Positions 8,536 to 57,863 of a DNA stretch of 64,000 bases are shown here, piece after piece (the first letter of the stretch is position 1; every line of letters starts with the position of its first letter). This stretch comes from Candidatus Doudnabacteria bacterium. GTDB taxonomy: Bacteria; Patescibacteriota; Doudnabacteria; UBA920; O2-02-FULL-48-8. The DNA lies in NCBI GenBank assembly GCA_016186915.1, contig JACPKU010000006.1, positions 173,739-237,738 on the forward strand, read 5' to 3'. A model generated the notes under the pieces. The model made no database searches, was not told the origin of the DNA, and was given only the letters and a program-made list of their open reading frames with translations. A program made the position numbers and the translations under genes.

Positions 8536-9060
8536 TTAGTAGTTTGTAGTGAGTAATGTTAACAGCGCCAGGATGATTAAGATAACTTCTAGTTTAAAGG
8601 TAAATGTTTTAAAGTATTTTATTAAGAACTCCATCCAGTGGGCGAAGAACGGCTTGCTCTCGATTACGATCCTGTTGTCCGTATTAAAACTTAAAGGTTT
8701 TTTGGAAAACGGATAAAGCCAGATCACTCCTTCAGCAGAAAACGTATCCAGAAAAAAATGAGACCAGGTGCCTAAGATAAATGCATACGCGATCAAGCTT
8801 GATTCAGGGAACAGAATAATCCAGCCAAGAAAAACTAGTAAGTATGCAAGCGGTGCGTGAGTTATATACAACCTATGATCCTCATCTGCCCTGGAGGTAA
8901 AGCTTTTGATTCTGATAAAAGTGACAAACCTATCCAGATCCGGTACAAAAGCAAACAGAGCTGTAAGAGCAAAAAACGTGGAGTTAGCTAAGCTAGAGCT
9001 TGATAAGGCTGTCAATCTTGCTACTAGATATCCACCAACCACGTGACCCGGAGGAAGCAT
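8536..9060 (-). CDS. YdjM-like membrane-bound metal-dependent hydrolase (DUF457) inserted between secE and nusG
   Basis: It is a multi-transmembrane protein with conserved His and Asp residues in the contexts PDLD and SHFFLD. Confidence 0.45.
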   Translation of the reverse strand: MLPPGHVVGGYLVARLTALSSSSLANSTFFALTALFAFVPDLDRFVTFIRIKSFTSRADEDHRLYITHAPLAYLLVFLGWIILFPESSLIAYAFILGTWSHFFLDTFSAEGVIWLYPFSKKPLSFNTDNRIVIESKPFFAHWMEFLIKYFKTFTFKLEVILIILALLTLLTTNY

Positions 9061-9065
9061 ATTTA

Positions 9066-9248
9066 TTATACAGACAAAAATTTAAATAATTCATTCAAGC
9101 CAAAATCAACGGCACCCAAAAACAAGGCTACGGCCAAAGAAAGCAGGATCACCGCCACAGTAATACGAATGGTTTCGCGTCTGGTGGGCCACACTACTTT
9201 TCTCAGTTCGCCCCACGCTTCTTTTACGAATTGTATCGGATTTGCCAT
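9066..9248 (-). CDS. secE: Preprotein translocase subunit SecE
   Basis: It is 60 aa and reads KEAWGELRKVVWPTRRETIRITVAVILLSL. Confidence 0.8.
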   Translation of the reverse strand: MANPIQFVKEAWGELRKVVWPTRRETIRITVAVILLSLAVALFLGAVDFGLNELFKFLSV

Positions 9249-9254
9249 AAAAGC

Positions 9255-9285
9255 TCGTTTTTTAAAACCCCTTTCGGGGCTTTGT
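9255..9285 (-). terminator. Intrinsic terminator after gyrB
   Basis: The minus strand reads AAAGCCCCGAAAGGGGUUUUAAAAAA. Confidence 0.5.
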
Positions 9286-9339
9286 ATCCAGCATTATATA
9301 ACGTTTTATTATTTTACGCAAGTTCATGCGCAAACAAGC

Positions 9340-11403
<2,064 letters not shown>

Positions 11404-18129: not shown

Positions 18130-18420
18130 ACAGGCATTATAGCATTGCGCATGGTCCTGATGAAATATAAATAAAAAAATATAAATAAAATATAAAAAGC
18201 GTACGTTGACCATTTTCAGCGATCGCTTTTTTTACTCAACGACAACGGAAATAAAATAAACAGCCTTTGGGCATAAACTTAATTAAGCGCCAAAAATATT
18301 ATCCCGGTTAAAACTGTGACCATCGTCACAACAAGCAATACCTCGAAAAAGGTATATCCCCGATAAATTTTGTTTTTTGGTTTCTGTTTGTTCACAAACG
18401 TGTGTATAAATATTATATAA

Positions 18421-18455
18421 AAAAAGAGGCGGTGAAGCAAGTGCTTGCCATCGCC
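18421..18455 (-). terminator. Intrinsic terminator closing the GC-rich islet
   Basis: The minus strand reads GGCGAUGGCAAGCACUUGCUUCACCGCCUCUUUUU. Confidence 0.6.
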
Positions 18456-18473
18456 TCGGGTGCTGACACGCAG

Positions 18474-19563
18474 TCAAGGAGCCTTCACGGTTTTAGGTCC
18501 TTGATCGCGCCGGTCGGCGAAAGGACCCGAAGGCCCCTCGTAGCCCACGTTCCAGCCGTTGCCAGACGGATTTGGCACCCTGGTAGGTGCCTCATCCGGA
18601 ACTTGATGCTCCGGACCACGTCGGTACAAGACACCGCCGCGCCCAGTAAGGTGGGCAAAATACACGTCGTCGCTCTCGTCGCTCATGCTTCCTCCAGTAA
18701 GAATTAAGGTGCCTCGCGCAGGTAGGATCAACGCGCATGATCGCTCACTGGCGGTCTGTGCGCGTAATGCAGCAGGAGGGCGAACTGCATCCTCTAAGGC
18801 GCGGCTCGCAGGGCCAGCAACCGTGAGAGGGCGACCGGAAGGTCGACTTTGACAGATCCTTATTCACCACGCGAGACACCCACCCAAACTATACGCCCAA
18901 ACAGCCAGCCGGTCAAAGCACTCCGGTGCGCTGTAGCGAACGCCGAACCTCTCCGTTCTTGACCCAAGCCCCGACGAACTGCGTCCAAATCAGTCGATCG
19001 GTGTTCGAGGTAAGGTCAAAAACCTTTCTCGCGAGATAGATCCTGAAGTCGAGACTGGGCCCTTCTGACTGTCCCAGTTCCATCAGCAGCAAGCCGTAGT
19101 CCTTCGGGTCGCACACGACGAGCACGTCACGCCAGTTTTTGGCTGCAGCCCGGAGCAGACTCGGTCCGCCGATGTCGATTTCCTCCACCAGATCGTCGAA
19201 ACCAATGGCTTCCCTCGCGGACTGCTCGAACTGATAGAGGTTAACCACGACGATGTCGTACGGATGGAGGCCATGTTGCTCGAGCGAGTGCATATCCGAC
19301 GCGTTCGCTCTCCGAGCGAGAATTCCGGCGAACACGGCCGGATGGAGCGTCTTTACACGTCCATCCATCATCTCGGGGAAACCCGTGACGTCGCTGATAT
19401 GCACGACTGGCACGCCGCCGGCTTCGATAACACGCGCCGTGCCGCCGGTAGACACCAGCTCATAGCCACGGCCCAGAAGGGCACGCGCCAACTCCACGAT
19501 TCCGGTCTTGTCCGTCACACTGATCAAAGCACTGGGCATCACTCCTCCTTTGGAAAAAGCCAA
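18474..19563 (-). pseudogene. purH: GC-rich (about 60%) remnant of purH: an intact IMP cyclohydrolase (MGS-like) N-terminal domain, with the AICAR transformylase part mostly deleted or frameshifted
   Basis: ORF 18913-19563 reads ALISVTDKTGIVELA...STGGTAR...GFPEMMDGRVKTLHP...VVVNLYQFE...IDIGGPSLLRAAAKN and then stops after the linker. A downstream frame (18474-18731 and its extension) weakly resembles the PurH C-terminus. The GC content is far above the genome background. Confidence 0.6.
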
Positions 19564-19640
19564 ACCTTGGCGGTCGGGCCTTTGTGTTGTGTCTTCAGTT
19601 TACTGCTTCCGTGATAAATTGACAAGCTTGAAAGATAGTC

Positions 19641-19673: not shown

Positions 19674-19750
19674 TGGCGTCCCCAGAAGGACTCGAACCTT
19701 CGACCTTCTCCTCCGGAGGGAGACGCTCTAATCCACTGAGCTATGGGGAC
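19674..19750 (-). tRNA. tRNA-Arg (anticodon CCG), CCA encoded
   Basis: The reverse complement is GTCCCCATAGCTCAGTGGATTAGAGCGTCTCCCTCCGGAGGAGAAGGTCGAAGGTTCGAGTCCTTCTGGGGACGCCA, which folds as a cloverleaf. Confidence 0.85.
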
Positions 19751-32766: not shown

Positions 32767-32790
32767 ACAATCGTCTTGGAGCCGACCGTC
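32767..32790 (-). pseudogene. Isolated tRNA 3'-end fragment (…GTTCAAGTCCGACGGTCGGCTCCA), about 80% identical to the tRNA-Thr 3' end
   Basis: Its acceptor 3' strand (GGTCGGC-T-CCA) is perfectly complementary to the 5' acceptor strand of the partial tRNA at 32935-32990. No T-stem can form. Confidence 0.5.
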
Positions 32791-32859
32791 GGACTTGAAC
32801 CCCGGTAGTAGAACACTTCGTGTTCACTACGGGGCAGGCCTCCAACTTTACCCCGTACC
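32791..32859 (-). other. Long imperfect hairpin (CCCCGTAGTGAACAC-GAAG-TGTTCTACTACCGGGG) plus spacer within the rearranged tRNA-Thr locus
   Basis: It is directly visible. It shares the CCCCGTA start with the inverted repeats that flank tRNA-Thr. Confidence 0.4.
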
Positions 32860-32934
32860 GAATGCTTGATGGAGCCGGCTGTCAGATTTGAACTGACGAC
32901 CTACCGCTTACGAAGCGGTTGCTCTACCCCTGAG
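32860..32934 (-). tRNA. tRNA-Thr (anticodon CGT), flanked by a 14 nt inverted repeat (CCCCGTACCAGAATG ... CATTCGGTACGGGG)
   Basis: The reverse complement is GCCGGCTTAGCTCAGGGGTAGAGCAACCGCTTCGTAAGCGGTAGGTCGTCAGTTCAAATCTGACAGCCGGCTCCA. Confidence 0.85.
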
Positions 32935-32990
32935 CTAAGCCGGCATTCTGGTACGGGGCTACGGTTTACGATACCGTTGCTCTACCATTG
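32935..32990 (-). pseudogene. 5' half of a second tRNA-Thr(CGT)-like gene (acceptor GCCGACC, D-arm, anticodon arm ACGGT-ATCGTAA-ACCGT) lacking a T-arm
   Basis: The reverse complement is GCGCCGACCTAGCTCAATGGTAGAGCAACGGTATCGTAAACCGTAGCCCCGTACC. Its matching 3' acceptor strand lies 145 nt downstream, beyond the intact tRNA-Thr. Confidence 0.5.
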
Positions 32991-32994
32991 AGCT

Positions 32995-33045
32995 AGGTCG
33001 GCGCGTTGGTGCAGGCTGCTGTTATGATACTGCTGCTCTACCATT
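32995..33045 (-). pseudogene. Second, more degenerate copy of the same tRNA 5' half
   Basis: AATAGCTCAATGGTAGAGCAGCAGTATCATAACAGCAGCC aligns with CTAGCTCAATGGTAGAGCAACGGTATCGTAAACCGTAGCC. Confidence 0.45.
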
Positions 33046-33097
33046 GAGCTATTTTGGTGTATTCAATTACAATTATACCACATATATCACAAAAAAC

Positions 33098-49432: not shown

Positions 49433-49915
49433 TTACGGGATGACCAAGCCAAGCATCTGGGCCAAGGGCGAAGATCCTCGAGCCTTCATTGCCCGCTTTT
49501 CCGCCAGCCGTTCTCGTTCCTCACGCATCTCTCTTTGATCCTCGCATGTCTTGCAACGGATCGCGAAAGGCAACGAGCGCAGGCGAGCTTCGGCAATCTC
49601 ATCACCACAGGACTTGCACTCGCCATAGTCGCCTTTTTGGAGACGGCTCAGGGCAGTGTTTATCAGGCGGAGTGTTCTACACCTCATGGCGGTGAGCTCA
49701 GCGTCGAGGTCATGCTGGGTTTGTCCAGCCGAACATTCTGCCTGGTCGCCTGGTTGGGTATCCCAGGCTTCGCGCCCAGGCTTCAGAGCAGCCATAACTT
49801 CCCGCTGCCGACTCAGCAGAATTTCACCAAGTACACGATTCCGCAAGGTCTCTCTCTCAAACGGCAGGCTCTGCTGCCGACTATCCTTCTTCTTGGCCAT
49901 GATTCCTCCAGTCAT
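49433..49915 (-). CDS. DksA/TraR-family C4 zinc-finger protein, encoded by a GC-rich (about 56%) cassette
   Basis: The zinc-finger block reads CKSCGDEIAEARL...PFAIRCKTCE. The probable start is the second Met, with GGAGG 4 nt upstream. Confidence 0.65.
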   Translation of the reverse strand: MTGGIMAKKKDSRQQSLPFERETLRNRVLGEILLSRQREVMAALKPGREAWDTQPGDQAECSAGQTQHDLDAELTAMRCRTLRLINTALSRLQKGDYGECKSCGDEIAEARLRSLPFAIRCKTCEDQREMREERERLAEKRAMKARGSSPLAQMLGLVIP

Positions 49916-51465: not shown

Positions 51466-51585
51466 TCGCTTTTTCTTCTGGCATATGTTAACAATTTTTA
51501 TCTACTTAAATTATAACACATTCTTACTTTTACAACGCAGCTAATGTTGAAAAAAGTCCAAATTTTTGCTATATTTAAGACGATT

Positions 51586-51660
51586 TGGGGAGTAGCCAAG
51601 CGGTAAGGCAGGGGCCTTTGAAGCCCCCATTCGTAGGTTCGATCCCTACCTCCCCAGCCA
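51586..51660 (+). tRNA. tRNA-Gln (anticodon TTG)
   Basis: The sequence is TGGGGAGTAGCCAAGCGGTAAGGCAGGGGCCTTTGAAGCCCCCATTCGTAGGTTCGATCCCTACCTCCCCAGCCA. It has a U1-A72 pair, as in bacterial tRNA-Gln. Confidence 0.85.
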
Positions 51661-51666
51661 AATACA

Positions 51667-51690
51667 AAGCCCGGCAAGGCTTTTTTAATT
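51667..51690 (+). terminator. Intrinsic terminator after tRNA-Gln
   Basis: The sequence is AAGCC-CGGCA-AGGCTT followed by TTTTTT. Confidence 0.6.
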
Positions 51691-51720
51691 AACGTCATTG
51701 ACAAAAAGTCAGGAGGACCA

Positions 51721-52257
51721 ATGACAGGCAAATTCGATCGCATCTTCCGCGGGGTGGCTGATCAAGGCAACCTCTCAGGGGTGCTTGAGGCCCTGCGGCT
51801 TCACGACCGCACAGATCTCGAACTAGAGCGGTTTCTCGATGTCGTCACAACCCAAAGCACCCGCTGCGTGGCAGAGGGTTGTACGGCAGACATGAATCGA
51901 GCGCAAGCGTTTGCCATGCTCGCTTCATCGGACGAGCTGATTGTCGGGTGCCGCGACGACATCTCTCTGTTCGCCGGATTTGACGCAGATCGCCCGTTCG
52001 TCCATGCCCCAGCGCTCTTCCTCGAGATCGGCAAGGTCATGGACGCCCGGAAGAAGGCGAGAAACGAAGCGCGTGACAAGCTCTTTGCCAGATACCGGGA
52101 CTACCTGGTCAAGATCCGCGGGGTCCCAAAGCCCGAGATCACCAACGACCTGATCGAGAAAGAGCTGAAGGAAAAAGGCTATCTCGACGAAGCCGGCAAC
52201 CCGCGAGAGAAGGTGTCTCGAACCACGACGGTTACAGCGACCACGCTTCGGCGTTGA
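51721..52257 (+). CDS. Hypothetical 178 aa protein in a GC-rich (about 58%) single-gene cassette with its own TTGACA box, strong SD and terminator
   Basis: Upstream sequence reads TTGACAaaaagtcAGGAGGaccaATG. The protein shows no family recognisable by eye. Confidence 0.5.
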   Translation: MTGKFDRIFRGVADQGNLSGVLEALRLHDRTDLELERFLDVVTTQSTRCVAEGCTADMNRAQAFAMLASSDELIVGCRDDISLFAGFDADRPFVHAPALFLEIGKVMDARKKARNEARDKLFARYRDYLVKIRGVPKPEITNDLIEKELKEKGYLDEAGNPREKVSRTTTVTATTLRR

Positions 52258-52284
52258 CTCGAGTTAGATCCGATGAATACAAAG

Positions 52285-52325
52285 CACGGTTACAGCTGCG
52301 GGCTGAACCGTGCCTTTTTTTAGTT
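52285..52325 (+). terminator. Intrinsic terminator after the GC-rich ORF
   Basis: The sequence is GCACGGTT-(14 nt loop)-AACCGTGC followed by CTTTTTTT. Confidence 0.6.
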
Positions 52326-52377
52326 TTCTTATCAGGAAACCCCTGAGCAAAACTTCGGGGTTGTTTTTTTATTCCAG

Positions 52378-53853
52378 CTACTCCACTTCCCCGCCCATGA
52401 TTTTCAGGGCAGATTCAACCAGTTCTTCCTCATTGTTGTTATCATCTTCCTGTTCATTCTTCAAAATTGGTTTAACCATTAACTTAGCGCCGATCACTTC
52501 CTCTATCGCTTGATCAACCACGATTCTGTTCTTTCGCGCCTCAATCGCATCTTTATGAAATCGGTATGGAAAGACCAAGACCAGTTCAGAGCCAACAACT
52601 GCGACTGGCTCTGCCAGCTTTAGGCTTGAGATGAGAGAGTGGTTATAATCTTTAACTTTTTCCAAAATTTGCTTCCAATGAGTTTGTACAAGACTAAGAG
52701 TGTCACTATTACTTCTTGCGTTTACAGCTGGCGCTGGCTCTTGTTTTGATTCTAAAACTGGTAACGCATTGGGCGACGGCGCTGTCGCTTCCACAACTGC
52801 AACCTCCAAAGGAAGCGCCGGAATGCTCGCCCATTTCAATTCACTCTCTGCTTTTTGAAAAATCTTGATAATGCTCGTGATTTCGTCCAGACTTTGAGCA
52901 TCTGCTTGAGCTTGCAGTTTTTCCCTCGTCTCTGCGGTAAGCGAATGCCCCTCCAAACTGCCTATTTTAGTAAGCAGTACTTTTCTCAAATATTCCAGCA
53001 GATCCTTCTGAAACTGATACAAATCAGCGCCGGAGTAAGTTAGGTTGGAGATAAAATTGACTGCTTCTTTGGTTTGTCTCTGGATTAACAGATCCAAAAA
53101 TTTGGCTATGACACTACTACCGGTCAGCCCCAAGATGTTCTGAACAGTTCCTTCAGAAATGGGGCCTTCTTCGTAATTTAGCAACTGGTCCAGCAGGGAA
53201 AGACCGTCTCGGAAGCTTCCGTCTGCGGCCTCGGCCAGCTCAACCAAGGCTTCTTGAGTGATTTCGCGCTTACTGTCTTCGGTCACGTATTTTAGAAGCT
53301 TGACCAAATCCGCGATAGAGATTTTTCGAAAATCAAACCGCTGCGTCCTGGAAACAATGGTCGCGGGCACTTTATGAATCTCTGTGGTGGCCAAAACAAA
53401 AATCGCGTGCGCTGGCGGCTCTTCCAAACTTTTCAAAAGCGCGTTGAACGCGCCTTTGGACAGCATGTGCACCTCGTCAATAATGATCACTTTATATCGA
53501 GACCGGCTTGGGGCAAATTTCAGATGCTCAATAATTTCTCGAATGTTATCAACGCCGGTGTGCGAGGCGGCGTCAATCTCTAAAATATCCAGCGAAGTCC
53601 CATTTAACAATTGGGTGCAGACCTCGCAATTGTTGCAAGGCTCTCCCCTGTCAGGCCGCAGACAATTTACTGAACGCGAAAAAATTCTGGCGATGGTGGT
53701 TTTGCCCACTCCTCTGGGGCCTGTAAAAAGATAGGCGTGGCCAATCCGCTCATTTTTTACGGCATTAACCAGCGTGGATTTGATATGCTCTTGATTAATC
53801 ACCTGAGCAAAATTCAGCGGCCGGTATTTTCGATATAAGACTAAATTAGGCAT
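52378..53853 (-). CDS. dnaX: DNA polymerase III subunit gamma/tau
   Basis: It has an AAA+ clamp-loader N-terminus (GPRGVGKTTIARIF, Walker B IIDEVHMLS, sensor SRTQRF). Confidence 0.85.
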   Translation of the reverse strand: MPNLVLYRKYRPLNFAQVINQEHIKSTLVNAVKNERIGHAYLFTGPRGVGKTTIARIFSRSVNCLRPDRGEPCNNCEVCTQLLNGTSLDILEIDAASHTGVDNIREIIEHLKFAPSRSRYKVIIIDEVHMLSKGAFNALLKSLEEPPAHAIFVLATTEIHKVPATIVSRTQRFDFRKISIADLVKLLKYVTEDSKREITQEALVELAEAADGSFRDGLSLLDQLLNYEEGPISEGTVQNILGLTGSSVIAKFLDLLIQRQTKEAVNFISNLTYSGADLYQFQKDLLEYLRKVLLTKIGSLEGHSLTAETREKLQAQADAQSLDEITSIIKIFQKAESELKWASIPALPLEVAVVEATAPSPNALPVLESKQEPAPAVNARSNSDTLSLVQTHWKQILEKVKDYNHSLISSLKLAEPVAVVGSELVLVFPYRFHKDAIEARKNRIVVDQAIEEVIGAKLMVKPILKNEQEDDNNNEEELVESALKIMGGEVE

Positions 53854-55331: not shown

Positions 55332-57863
55332 TTATCCTGTCCTTTCAGTGGATGCAATACCGCTTTTTACAGGCGAGCCGAGTCGAGTACGCCTTAAAAT
55401 TTCTTCTTCTACCTCGGACTTGGGACGTCCGTATTTTAACTTGGAAAGATTCTTGATTGTTTGAGCCACTCGCGGATCGCCTTGAGTCGGTTTCGGATAA
55501 GTTTCCATGCTGAAAGGGCGGGACGCGGTGCCGTCAATCATAAGTTTGACGTAAGCATTGTATCTGTCAATATTGACAACATCAAATTCGTTAAACACCG
55601 GAGCAAACTCCTTGCCCATAATTTCCGCATCCTCTACCCCGATGCGAAAAGTAATCATAGTGCCGGCATTGCCAAACACCGCGTCTCGCATCCGGCTGTC
55701 CAAAGTATTGCTTCCTTCTTTTTCTGTGGTGAGCTGGGAAATAAACTGATGGGCCATAATCAAATCCAGCCGATATTTTCTGGCCTCAGACAAAATCGTG
55801 GCAAAGCTGTCTGTGACAAAATTTTGAAACTCATCCACATACAGATAGAAGTCCCGTCTTTGATCTTCCGGCTGATCAGCGCGCGACATCGCCGCCATCT
55901 GGAGCTTAGAAACGACAATCAACCCCAAAAGTTTGGCGTTGACCTCGCCGGTCTTGCCTTTGGAAAGGTTGATCAGCAATATCTTGCCTTCATCCATGAC
56001 CTTGCGGAAATCAAACGAGCTGGTGGGCTGGCCGATGATGTTGCGCATCATTTCGTTTTCCACAAATCTGCCGACTTTGGAAATCAAATACCCCAACATT
56101 TCGGACTTGTGAAAGTCCGAAGTTTTCGCCATTTCTTTTTCCCAAAACGCCCGCACCACTGGATCTTGAACTTTCGAAAGCTTGTAGCGCTGAAAAGCGG
56201 TGTCTGTAAACATCCTAGGGATATCCGCGATGGTTCCCGGATTTTGTTTGTCTTCCAAAAGCGTGAGCATGACGTTGCGCATATTATGCTCAAACATCGG
56301 CCCAATCATTTCCGGCGGGAACAGCTTATAAAAAATCGAGATCATTTCCTGAATTACGAAATCTTTTTGCTCCGCTCCTTTGGCTTCCAGCATATTAAGC
56401 CCCACCGGCCGATCAAGATCAAACGGTTCAAACAAAATCACGTCGTCCGCGCGCTCTTTGGGGATGTATGAAAGCAGGTCGTCCACCAGATCGCCGTGCG
56501 GATCCACCACGCACAACCCTTCGCCTTGGCGAATGTCCTGAATCGCCAGGTTTTTCATCAGTTCGGTTTTGCCCGTCCCAGTGCGGCCAATAATATACAT
56601 GTGTCTTCTACGGTCATCGTGTTTGATGTACACTTTTGTCTCCACTCCGCGGTAAAGGCTTTTGCCCAAAAGCAATCCTTCCTCCGGCAGATTATGAGGC
56701 GGCACGCCCTTTTTTGAACCCAGCCACTTGATATGCGGCGTTTCCGTGAATCGGGTTGGCAAATGCCAGATGCTGGCCAGTTCTTCGGTGTTCAGGATTT
56801 CCCTGCTTCCCCGAAAAATCCGAAAAATAAAATCAGTCACCACCCGCTTAACTGGTTTATGTTTGACCTTAAATCCGTTAAACGGCGGCATGGAATATTG
56901 CATAAACGAGGAGAGAATGTTTTTCAGATGCGCCTGCGCCGCTCCCTCACTGCTCGAAGAGGCGACTAATCTTAAATTATACGTAAACCCGGCTCGCGAG
57001 GCTTTTTCCTCAAAACGTTTGACAATCTCCTGCTGCATCGGGGTGAGCGTCAGAGGTTTTTGCCTTGAGTTTTGTGGCAAAAGGTCTGTTTGGCTTTTCT
57101 TTTTTCCGGACAGCAATTCGTTAAACGCGTTTCCTAAAACATCAAAAGTATTTAAAACAAATTTTTGGCTGCCGCTGGCTGTAACTCTGCCCGGATCCTT
57201 GCCCTGTTGTATCTGCGAAGCCAAGCGCCTGGGTTTTGCCTGCCAGTTGCTGCCCGCGGGGCTGATAATCAGTTGAATTGCCGCCCCTTCATCCTCGGTC
57301 AACTTGGAGAGGCTGTTGGTTAAAGAATTGAGCGGGTCGGTTTCTGTCTCTTTGTAAGTGCGGATAGGAAAAATGTAGTTTTTCTGCAGTCCCAGCTCCA
57401 CGGCCGCCACTGCAGAGTCCGGTTTAAAAAGTTTGTATGGTTTGATCGTTTCTATCTGGGCAGTTGGATATTGCGCGTGCAGTTGTTTTTCAATCAATGC
57501 TTGAAGTTTCTTTGGTACATTCAAATAAAACGAAATTTTCTTGCCAACTGCCGCAATCTCCAAGCTGATATTCTCATTAATGCCCAAAAGACGGTTGAGG
57601 TCTCCTTTTTCCCTGACATCCGCAATGGTTGTAAAAAATTGCTCAGCAATGCTGATTACGTCCTTCTCTTCTTTTTTAGGATCATTGTCCTTTGCCTCGC
57701 TTTCTTTGGGAACCTGCACCTCCAAAAACACAGAATTTTTTATTCGGGGCACCCAGCCTTTTTTGCGCGTAGATTCCTCAATTAAAAAATACAAAAGCAG
57801 GCCGACCAAAATAAGTATGGCGACTAATAACAACCAGAAAAAAACAATGGCGGCACTAGACAT
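55332..57863 (-). CDS. Membrane-anchored TraD/TraG/VirD4-family (type IV coupling-protein-like, FtsK/HerA-class) P-loop ATPase
   Basis: It has an N-terminal transmembrane segment, a Walker A (HMYIIGRTGTGKTELMKN), a Walker B (FYLYVDEFQNF) and a TraD-like C-terminus. It is 843 aa. Confidence 0.6.
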   Translation of the reverse strand: MSSAAIVFFWLLLVAILILVGLLLYFLIEESTRKKGWVPRIKNSVFLEVQVPKESEAKDNDPKKEEKDVISIAEQFFTTIADVREKGDLNRLLGINENISLEIAAVGKKISFYLNVPKKLQALIEKQLHAQYPTAQIETIKPYKLFKPDSAVAAVELGLQKNYIFPIRTYKETETDPLNSLTNSLSKLTEDEGAAIQLIISPAGSNWQAKPRRLASQIQQGKDPGRVTASGSQKFVLNTFDVLGNAFNELLSGKKKSQTDLLPQNSRQKPLTLTPMQQEIVKRFEEKASRAGFTYNLRLVASSSSEGAAQAHLKNILSSFMQYSMPPFNGFKVKHKPVKRVVTDFIFRIFRGSREILNTEELASIWHLPTRFTETPHIKWLGSKKGVPPHNLPEEGLLLGKSLYRGVETKVYIKHDDRRRHMYIIGRTGTGKTELMKNLAIQDIRQGEGLCVVDPHGDLVDDLLSYIPKERADDVILFEPFDLDRPVGLNMLEAKGAEQKDFVIQEMISIFYKLFPPEMIGPMFEHNMRNVMLTLLEDKQNPGTIADIPRMFTDTAFQRYKLSKVQDPVVRAFWEKEMAKTSDFHKSEMLGYLISKVGRFVENEMMRNIIGQPTSSFDFRKVMDEGKILLINLSKGKTGEVNAKLLGLIVVSKLQMAAMSRADQPEDQRRDFYLYVDEFQNFVTDSFATILSEARKYRLDLIMAHQFISQLTTEKEGSNTLDSRMRDAVFGNAGTMITFRIGVEDAEIMGKEFAPVFNEFDVVNIDRYNAYVKLMIDGTASRPFSMETYPKPTQGDPRVAQTIKNLSKLKYGRPKSEVEEEILRRTRLGSPVKSGIASTERTG

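Follow-up and report, generated by a model that had tools for sequence, protein, structure and literature searches.

The asparagine tRNA genes (tDNAs) of Klebsiella are reportedly classical integration hot spots for genomic islets and islands, and free-standing GIY-YIG homing endonuclease genes are known to adjoin tRNA genes, as T4 segB does in the tRNA cluster of that phage. In Prochlorococcus, the islands associated with tycheposons are tRNA-seeded, flexible genomic islands that arise from transient integrative elements (bioRxiv 10.1101/2020.12.28.424599). Here we analyze a 64 kb stretch of DNA (the window; ~45% guanine plus cytosine, GC) from a metagenome-assembled genome (MAG) of Candidatus Doudnabacteria, a lineage of the candidate phyla radiation (CPR, or Patescibacteria), and, within it, a GC-rich, single-gene cassette located between a tRNA-Gln gene and dnaX. 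As at tDNA hot spots, the DNA in question is strain-specific, atypical in composition, and positioned 3' of a tRNA gene between conserved anchors. Islands at tDNA hot spots, by contrast, span kilobases to tens of kilobases, carry integrases, and are flanked by directly repeated tRNA 3' ends; we found none of these features here. Our favored interpretation, held with moderate confidence, is that the 615 bp unit at positions 51661-52275 is lineage-specific, horizontally acquired cargo in a flexible slot that is bounded by the 3' ends of tRNA-Gln(UUG) and dnaX.

A GC-rich, single-gene cassette follows tRNA-Gln

The tRNA-Gln gene (anticodon UUG, TTG in the DNA; 51586-51660, + strand), which encodes its CCA end, was called by ARAGORN and matched Rfam RF00005 with 64.8 bits against a gathering score of 29; it differs by one base from the tRNA-Gln gene of L090, the closest of the relatives described below. 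The unit that follows holds a short AT-rich leader, a strong Shine-Dalgarno (SD) sequence (AGGAGG, 51711-51716, + strand, with a spacer of 4 nucleotides (nt) to the ATG), and a GC-rich open reading frame (ORF) encoding 178 amino acids (aa; 51721-52257, + strand), the ATG of which lies 60 bases beyond tRNA-Gln. Downstream is a strong intrinsic terminator (52284-52321, + strand) composed of a 13-bp interrupted stem followed by T7, in which the hairpin (52284-52313) has a predicted folding energy of -19.9 kcal/mol (z = -3.2 relative to shuffled sequences). An earlier reading of this DNA from its letters alone (the sequence-only reading) had described a tRNA-Gln gene followed by a GC-rich ORF with an AGGAGG box and a terminator, and each of these elements was confirmed.

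At 58.8% GC, the ORF has a z of +3.4 relative to all 537-nt segments of the 64 kb, among which only the tRNA-Arg islet equals it. The GC contents at its first, second, and third codon positions (GC1, GC2, and GC3) are 0.64, 0.42, and 0.70, respectively, compared with a GC3 of ~0.49 in host genes, and the 1-kb flanks of the cassette have 44.9% GC on each side. The translation signal is as distinctive as the composition: in the 64 kb, exactly five real ORFs are introduced by GGAGG, a 4-5 nt spacer, and an ATG (starts: 18686, 19539, 32715, 49900, and 51721, distributed over four islets), and all five are GC-rich, whereas none of ~50 host gene starts has GGAGG at SD distance, their upstream regions being AT-rich. 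Three of the islets lie directly 3' of a tRNA gene (Arg-CCG, Thr-CGT, and Gln-TTG), as the sequence-only reading had recognized when it counted this cassette as the third such case. GGAGG at SD distance, confined within the window to these five GC-rich ORFs, may mark acquired or atypical genes in this lineage. The combination of host genes that lack an SD with cargo that is GC-rich and SD-led would provide an inexpensive marker by which acquired genes could be recognized throughout the genomes of these uncultured bacteria, and the composition of the donor, if traceable, might point to their partners.

The slot between tRNA-Gln and dnaX turns over across relatives

We compared the locus in 13 genomes, namely that of the window and those of 12 relatives (L004-L007, L009-L013, and L088-L090), which were collected by scanning GTDB species genomes with DnaX as the seed and by three additional look-ups, and which encode DnaX proteins with 56-65% identity. 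tRNA-Gln(UUG) adjoins the 3' end of dnaX in all 13, at 51-1445 bp beyond the dnaX stop codon, within a conserved backbone of genes encoding a type IV secretion system (T4SS)-coupling-like protein, a 200-aa protein, and DnaX, then the variable region, and then genes encoding RNaseH-like, thioredoxin, peptidase S11, and MraY proteins. In the window, the right-hand anchor of the slot is dnaX itself (DNA polymerase III gamma/tau; 52378-53853, - strand).

The gap between dnaX and tRNA-Gln contains no ORF in five genomes (L005, L006, L009, L013, and L088), and in each of the other eight it contains a different gene, with four of the cargoes being GC-rich and SD-led. GC-rich genes encode, in addition to the 178-aa protein of the window, a 130-aa protein in L007 (GC3 0.67), a NUDIX protein in L010 (GC3 0.72), and a 195-aa protein in L089 (61% GC, GC3 0.84, preceded by GGAGG). 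The remaining gaps are occupied by genes for a RibD_C-like protein (L011), a methyladenine glycosylase (L012), an NYN protein together with an rve remnant (L004), and, in L090, an AT-rich (35% GC), SIR2-like ORF of 318 aa (9575-10531) that starts 5 nt after the CCA of tRNA-Gln; the latter matches SIR2 (8e-7) and LmuA (1.7e-5) in PADLOC, has no match in Pfam, and occupies a slot with the same geometry as that in the window. No clear homologue of the 178-aa protein is encoded in the slots of the 12 relatives. The slot turns over across the clade, and the ORF is unique to the window genome at this site. Comparative genomics, proposed as a check in the sequence-only reading, did not find the ORF conserved in this position; it is absent from the site in all 12 relatives. 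Even a very small, streamlined CPR genome, therefore, keeps a flexible accessory-gene slot beside tRNA-Gln, one that is refilled differently wherever it is filled and, in one case (L090), with a recognizable defense-type gene.

Two further observations concern the surroundings of the slot. The orientation of tRNA-Gln flips among the genomes, being convergent with dnaX in six and co-directional in seven, which implies that the tRNA gene has repeatedly undergone small inversions or been replaced. The conserved backbone near dnaX includes an 843-aa TrwB/TraG-like gene (T4SS coupling protein, HerA-type ATPase; 55332-57863, - strand, in the window), the orthologues of which in L088-L090 carry DUF8128.

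A direct repeat brackets the cassette, and tRNA-Gln is a recombination target in relatives

The cassette is bracketed by a 14-nt direct repeat, AATACAAAGC[C/A]CGG (repeat family D7), with copies that are identical at 13 of 14 positions and have a spacing of 615. The left copy, AATACAAAGCCCGG (51661-51674, + strand), begins at the first base after the CCA of the tRNA, and the right copy, AATACAAAGCACGG (52276-52289, + strand), lies 19 nt after the stop codon of the ORF. When the two junction regions were shuffled, one of 5000 shuffles matched as well (p ~2e-4).

In relatives, it is the tRNA gene itself that bears traces of recombination. L007 contains two 20-nt stretches identical to the tRNA-Gln 3' end, each behind a short filler. 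In L006 (7282-7501, - strand), the order is a 50-nt copy of the 5' end, 38 nt, the intact tRNA-Gln gene, 41 nt, and a copy of the 3' end, and the intact gene is flanked by an inverted repeat (CCCCGCACCAATTT / AAATTGGTGCGGGG). In L004 (8890-9360), a 31-nt tRNA-Gln 5' fragment is followed by an ORF for a GIY-YIG nuclease (9020-9295) and then by the intact tRNA-Gln gene, the whole block being bracketed by TTTTCCGCCACAATA repeats, and the 45-nt leader of this GIY-YIG ORF recurs in L007 (8334-8406) as filler between the tRNA-Gln 3' fragments. These arrangements identify tRNA-Gln as a recombination target in relatives. The window also contains a GIY-YIG homologue (21777-22082, - strand; phmmer E 9e-8), which is located directly 5' of a tRNA-Met/Asp cluster, and the sequences suggest that homing-type elements are linked to tRNA genes in this clade.

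Other tRNA remnants were noted in addition. A conserved pseudo-5' tRNA-Gln fragment, in which a GC-rich hairpin intervenes between TGGGGAGTAGCC and CAAGCGGTAAGGCA, occurs in three genomes (L005, 7594-7652; L007, 7933-8010; and L003, 1-63, - strand) and was not called as a tRNA by ARAGORN or Rfam. In the window, the intact tRNA-Thr(CGT) gene (32870-32944, - strand; region 32777-33054) is nested between a 46-nt 5' copy (33002-32957, acceptor GCCGACC) and a 28-nt 3' copy (32804-32777, ending in GGTCGGCTCCA); the acceptor halves of these two copies are complementary to one another but not to the intact gene. Another 5' half is present at ~33054-33015, and the GC-rich cassette that lies beyond tRNA-Thr contains two ORFs, one of 45 aa that is SD-led and one of 90 aa. 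The layout resembles the outcome of inserting an entire tRNA gene into an older copy, or of replacing that copy, and the same nested architecture is repeated for tRNA-Gln in L006.

The 178-aa protein has a single clear homologue

A word-indexed search of 5.8 billion proteins matched the ORF to itself only (HYW51_02620 on a 420-kb contig, the sole identical database entry). An exhaustive HMMER search of 1.84 billion cluster representatives recovered one relative, P0002 (161 aa; E 8e-8), which is 32% identical to the ORF product over 129 residues (BLASTP). The two proteins share L.VGCRDD (the VGCRDD motif), Cys54 and Cys77, and RYR[DN]YL.K..GVP..EIT. Their genes have essentially no nucleotide similarity, and in a six-frame comparison of the two DNAs the annotated frame pair gave an E of 1e-13, while every other pair gave 0.01 or worse. 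Similarity confined to the annotated frame points to selection on the protein; the GC1>GC2<GC3 pattern, the optimal spacing of the SD, and the terminator also fit a coding unit. On these sequence criteria, the ORF is a real protein-coding gene.

P0002 is encoded on L003, a 1-kb Logan contig, by a gene with 56% GC (GC3 0.62) that is flanked by DNA with 45% and 31% GC and preceded by the same ribosome-binding site, TCAGGAGGA, as the ORF in the window. On the opposite strand, 180 nt upstream of the P0002 gene, L003 contains TTGGGGAGTAGCCCTGCTT, a hairpin-interrupted pseudo-5' tRNA-Gln fragment of the class found beside intact tRNA-Gln in L005 and L007. Each of the two secure family members is thus a GC-rich gene that adjoins tRNA-Gln sequence within AT-rich DNA. 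Beyond the coding sequence, aligning the cassette and L003 at the nucleotide level revealed nothing of use. The 195-aa protein from the slot of L089 was considered as a third member. Its similarity to the 178-aa protein is collinear and includes a VGC.D motif, but it is too weak (BLASTP E 0.025; hhalign E 0.0033, probability 9.7%), and phmmer does not link the protein to the family. Judged by these searches, the family has two members, possibly three, and the 178-aa protein is a near-orphan.

Consistent with the sequence-only reading, which had recognized no features in the protein, searches of Pfam, NCBIfam, PADLOC, and PDB sequences returned no match. The sole PHROG match, phrog_25187 (E 0.0056), is not shared by P0002 and was treated as noise. 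P0002 and the cassette proteins of L089 and L007 also had no match in PADLOC, the L090 slot gene being the only one that did. The ORF was unmatched in a tblastn search of 50,697 phage records, and scans of IMG/VR and of JGI metagenomes with the family alignment found no member. Structure prediction was another check proposed at the outset. AlphaFold2, run with the protein alone or with the two-sequence alignment, produced an all-helical model with a predicted local distance difference test (pLDDT) score of 55-57, which is confident only for a long C-terminal helix and a short helix (~residues 100-160), and the best Foldseek match to this model in the PDB had a meaningless E of 2.7. Because the closest relative, L090, holds a SIR2/LmuA-like defense gene in the same slot, our guess, by analogy, is that the 178-aa protein may have an accessory, conflict-related role.

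The ORF is probably transcribed from the tRNA-Gln promoter

A promoter-like site (TTGAAA-17 nt-TG-TATATT; 51547-51575, + strand) that matches the consensus at 10 of 12 positions and has a TG extension lies 10 nt upstream of tRNA-Gln and is the sole candidate detected in the region by a consensus scan; a similar arrangement, GTTGAAA...TATATT, is present upstream of tRNA-Gln in L090. The same scan found no usable promoter between tRNA-Gln and the ORF. The TTGACA box noted in the sequence-only reading does exist (51698-51703, + strand; read directly, and not called by the scan), but it cannot be used as a promoter for the ORF: the sequence 17 nt downstream is ATGACA (51721-51726), such that the -10 position falls on the start codon and the resulting mRNA would lack both the SD and the ATG. 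Immediately after the tRNA is a weak hairpin followed by T6 (51666-51689, + strand; stem-loop 51666-51683), which, at -6.3 kcal/mol, folds no better than shuffled sequence (z = -0.9) and is probably a leaky terminator. Given the weak first hairpin, the strong second hairpin, and the location of the only promoter-like site upstream of the tRNA, co-transcription with tRNA-Gln followed by tRNA processing is the simplest reading, and the ORF is probably transcribed from the tRNA-Gln promoter by read-through of the weak hairpin. L090 provides a parallel, in that no hairpin separates the tRNA CCA from the slot gene that starts 5 nt after it.

A further hairpin with T and A runs (52341-52370; stem-loop 52341-52360; -11.2 kcal/mol) lies between the cassette and the stop codon of dnaX (52378) and probably terminates the convergent dnaX gene; L006, L010, and L090 have a comparable hairpin after dnaX. 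Neighboring genes in the window encode MscS, a 189-aa protein without a Pfam match, DksA, RNaseH-like, thioredoxin, and DnaX proteins, proteins of 201 and 148 aa without Pfam matches and the T4SS-coupling-like protein.

The GC-rich islets of the window do not support a common recent donor

The sequence-only reading had also listed five GC-rich islets with short-spacer SDs and attributed them to a common foreign source. The five ORFs are present, in four islets, but the shared origin did not hold up where it could be tested. The purH-N islet (18399-19617, - strand), located 3' of tRNA-Arg(CCG) (19674-19750), encodes a stand-alone, 208-aa PurH N-terminal protein (MGS-like IMP cyclohydrolase domain) plus the start of the AICARFT domain, and it also holds a 70-aa SD-led orphan ORF. 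A PurH-N orthologue in a relative is 58% identical and of the same length, and the order RmuC-NYN-PurH-N-...-UvrD-like helicase is kept; an equal-sized gap is present at the position of the tRNA, and the same contig encodes a DnaX that is 62% identical. In this relative, a separate 332-aa AICARFT gene follows PurH-N, and this second gene is missing in the window. A 79%-identical PurH-N copy with the same leader was found in a sister sample, and the promoter-like leader of the islet (TTGTCA, 17 nt, TAAACT) is well conserved and common to L084. The DksA/TraR zinc-finger gene (49433-49915, - strand) has 57% GC, is SD-led, has its own terminator, and lies away from tRNAs; L088 encodes a 36%-identical DksA, with a host-like GC3 of 0.55, beside the same RNaseH-like gene as in the window. 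Since purH-N and DksA are syntenic, these islets predate the species and are not fresh deposits at a tRNA. Moreover, no boundary motif or 11-mer is common to the ten islet and cassette sequences compared. A common recent foreign donor for the islets is not supported. In a search for a donor via PurH-N homologues, the top "Actinomycetes" match was a duplicated-domain artefact, and many of the 200-aa PurH-N matches that were checked were split genes on non-CPR contigs.

Origin of the cassette

If the unit was acquired horizontally, its entry would have been a recombination event at the tRNA-Gln 3' end or directly beyond it, mediated by an enzyme that acted in trans or was lost later. Candidate processes are the action of a site-specific recombinase (from a transient integrative element, as in the island-accretion model of the tycheposon study) and repair stimulated by a homing endonuclease, and the data favor neither. 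Once in place, the gene would be transcribed from the tRNA-Gln promoter through the weak hairpin as far as the strong terminator of the cassette, and its mRNA would be translated through the canonical SD. The sequence-only reading had viewed tRNA-adjacent islets as sites at which integrative elements deposit cargo, and the foreign composition, the hypervariable slot, the tRNA-Gln scars in relatives, and the 14-nt repeat are in keeping with that view. Several findings, however, weigh against acquisition by insertion. The sequence of the 14-nt repeat is not that of the tRNA, and either microhomology or a duplicated terminator could account for it. The att-like repeat of the tRNA-Gln 3' end that had been anticipated was not detected, there being no second copy of the 25-nt 3' end in the 64 kb with up to three mismatches, and no integrase, transposase, or homing endonuclease was found within ~6 kb among the scanned ORFs of at least 100 aa (four of these have no Pfam match, and smaller ORFs were outside the scan). 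An empty site was not recovered in a close relative, the nearest sampled DnaX being only 65% identical, and no donor was identified. Finally, purH-N and DksA are GC-rich and SD-led yet syntenic in relatives, indicating that GC-richness and an SD alone neither prove recent transfer nor date it. The exact junction of the tRNA end and the repeat, filled or empty (the empty-site junction would read ...CCAGCCA-AATACAAAGCACGGTT), had no match in JGI metagenomes, and in viral contigs the tRNA-Gln 3' end occurred only in jumbo-phage tRNA arrays, which are irrelevant here. With no recombinase among the scanned ORFs and no copy of the tRNA-Gln 3' end in the window, the cassette is best described as cargo deposited in a tRNA-side slot by a process of which the enzyme is missing. 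The slot is an ordinary one for accessory genes beside a tRNA, and no delivery vehicle is proven.

Alternatively, the ORF could be an old, fast-evolving resident of the slot that was inherited vertically and mostly lost, belonging to a class of Doudnabacteria genes that are GC-rich and SD-led for functional reasons, in which case no recent insertion occurred. P0002, the only clear homologue, is also beside a tRNA-Gln fragment, but on the other side of the tRNA locus and with a different neighbor; the L089 protein in the same slot is weakly collinear with the ORF product, but phmmer does not join it to the family, and 10 or 11 of the 12 relatives have no homologue in the slot. The synteny of purH-N and DksA shows that GC-rich, SD-led genes can be long-standing, and it is mainly because some such genes are old in the lineage that we give this explanation weight at all. 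A GC3 of 0.70, however, would be expected to ameliorate toward 0.49 over such deep divergence, as the GC3 of the L088 DksA gene already has, and we consider old residence unlikely. Origin as a phage moron, or as what remains of a prophage or satellite at an attachment site in a tRNA gene, would fit a single gene with a terminator next to a tRNA, and the DksA-like and PurH-N-like islet proteins do match PHROG families, as the ORF product weakly does. The absence of matches in the phage records and IMG/VR, the failure of P0002 to share the PHROG, and the fact that phage genes, an integrase, and attR were not found all argue against it, and the phage purH matches look like bacterial DNA in phage records or cyanophage auxiliary genes. 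The cassette, which the sequence-only reading described as moron-like, is not self-contained, since it lacks a usable promoter of its own, and neither phage context nor a phage homologue was found; we regard a phage origin as highly improbable. An artefact, whether chimeric MAG assembly or binning or a chance ORF in GC-rich non-coding DNA, was considered given the MAG source, the tendency of GC-rich DNA to yield long chance ORFs, the presence of shadow ORFs (51801-52079, - strand; 51941-52153, + strand), and a break in both Logan contigs inside the tRNA at 51633. Independent Logan per-run assemblies (at least five runs), however, join the final 28 nt of the tRNA to the ORF and dnaX with 100% identity to the window, and the frame-specific homology, codon-position pattern, SD spacing, and terminator all fit a coding unit, making an artefact barely credible.

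Both ORF-bearing Logan contigs start at 51633 (tRNA-Gln position 48, in the T-arm/acceptor part), which indicates an assembly-graph branch within tRNA-Gln in those samples; its cause is possibly another organism, another allele, or an element with the same tRNA 3' end.

A broader proposal, to which we assign only a slim chance, is that orphan cassettes, each a single GC-rich, SD-led gene, are exchanged by Doudnabacteria at tRNA-linked slots without an element-borne integrase, by breakage and replacement of tRNA genes. The proposed drivers are free-standing GIY-YIG endonuclease/tRNA cassettes that would leave nested or split tRNA genes, with neighboring cargo being co-converted, and the cassettes would possibly come from a GC-richer, SD-using partner pool, maybe the host of these episymbionts. 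If so, the 178-aa family, found so far only beside tRNA-Gln sequences, would mark such traffic. Our literature searches did not turn up any account of CPR genomes with GC-rich or SD-led islets.

Comparison with known systems

The cassette is of a kind already known, a tRNA-adjacent flexible islet, and it does not have the features that define integrase-type islands, morons, or integron cassettes. Like an integrase-type island, it combines atypical composition with variable presence at a conserved anchor (13 genomes), but the insert holds only the 178-aa ORF, no recombinase was found among the scanned ORFs beside it, and no tRNA 3' attL/attR copies bound it in the window, although copies exist in L006 and L007. 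Like phage morons, it is a single accessory gene with its own terminator and an atypical composition; unlike morons, it lies outside a prophage, flanked by tRNA-Gln and dnaX on a clade-conserved backbone rather than by prophage genes, and lacks both its own promoter and any phage homologue that we could find. No attC-like site is shared among the ten sequences, no intI was found in the slot, and the ORF does not match a known anti-phage defense family in the PADLOC hidden Markov models.

Similarity with free-standing GIY-YIG systems is apparent in L004, where a GIY-YIG gene lies between a tRNA-Gln fragment and the intact gene, and in the GIY-YIG homologue beside the tRNA-Met cluster of the window. 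Double-strand-break repair in such systems could co-convert flanking cargo and is no more than a candidate mechanism for the cassette described here. The tRNA-Gln gene of the window has no adjoining GIY-YIG gene.

The tycheposon-associated islands provide a further comparison. The locus in the window differs from them in comprising one 0.6-kb gene, in being bracketed by a repeat of non-tRNA sequence, and in that no tyrosine or serine recombinase or hallmark gene was found in the window or in the compared slots; its host, moreover, is a member of the CPR and lacks SDs, and yet GC-rich, SD-led genes account for four of the eight cargoes. In both cases, nonetheless, cargo lies directly beside a full-length tRNA and varies in content between related genomes, partial tRNA copies mark repeated integrations (here in L006 and L007), most of the material is cargo left behind and not the element itself, and heterogeneity peaks right beside the tRNA.

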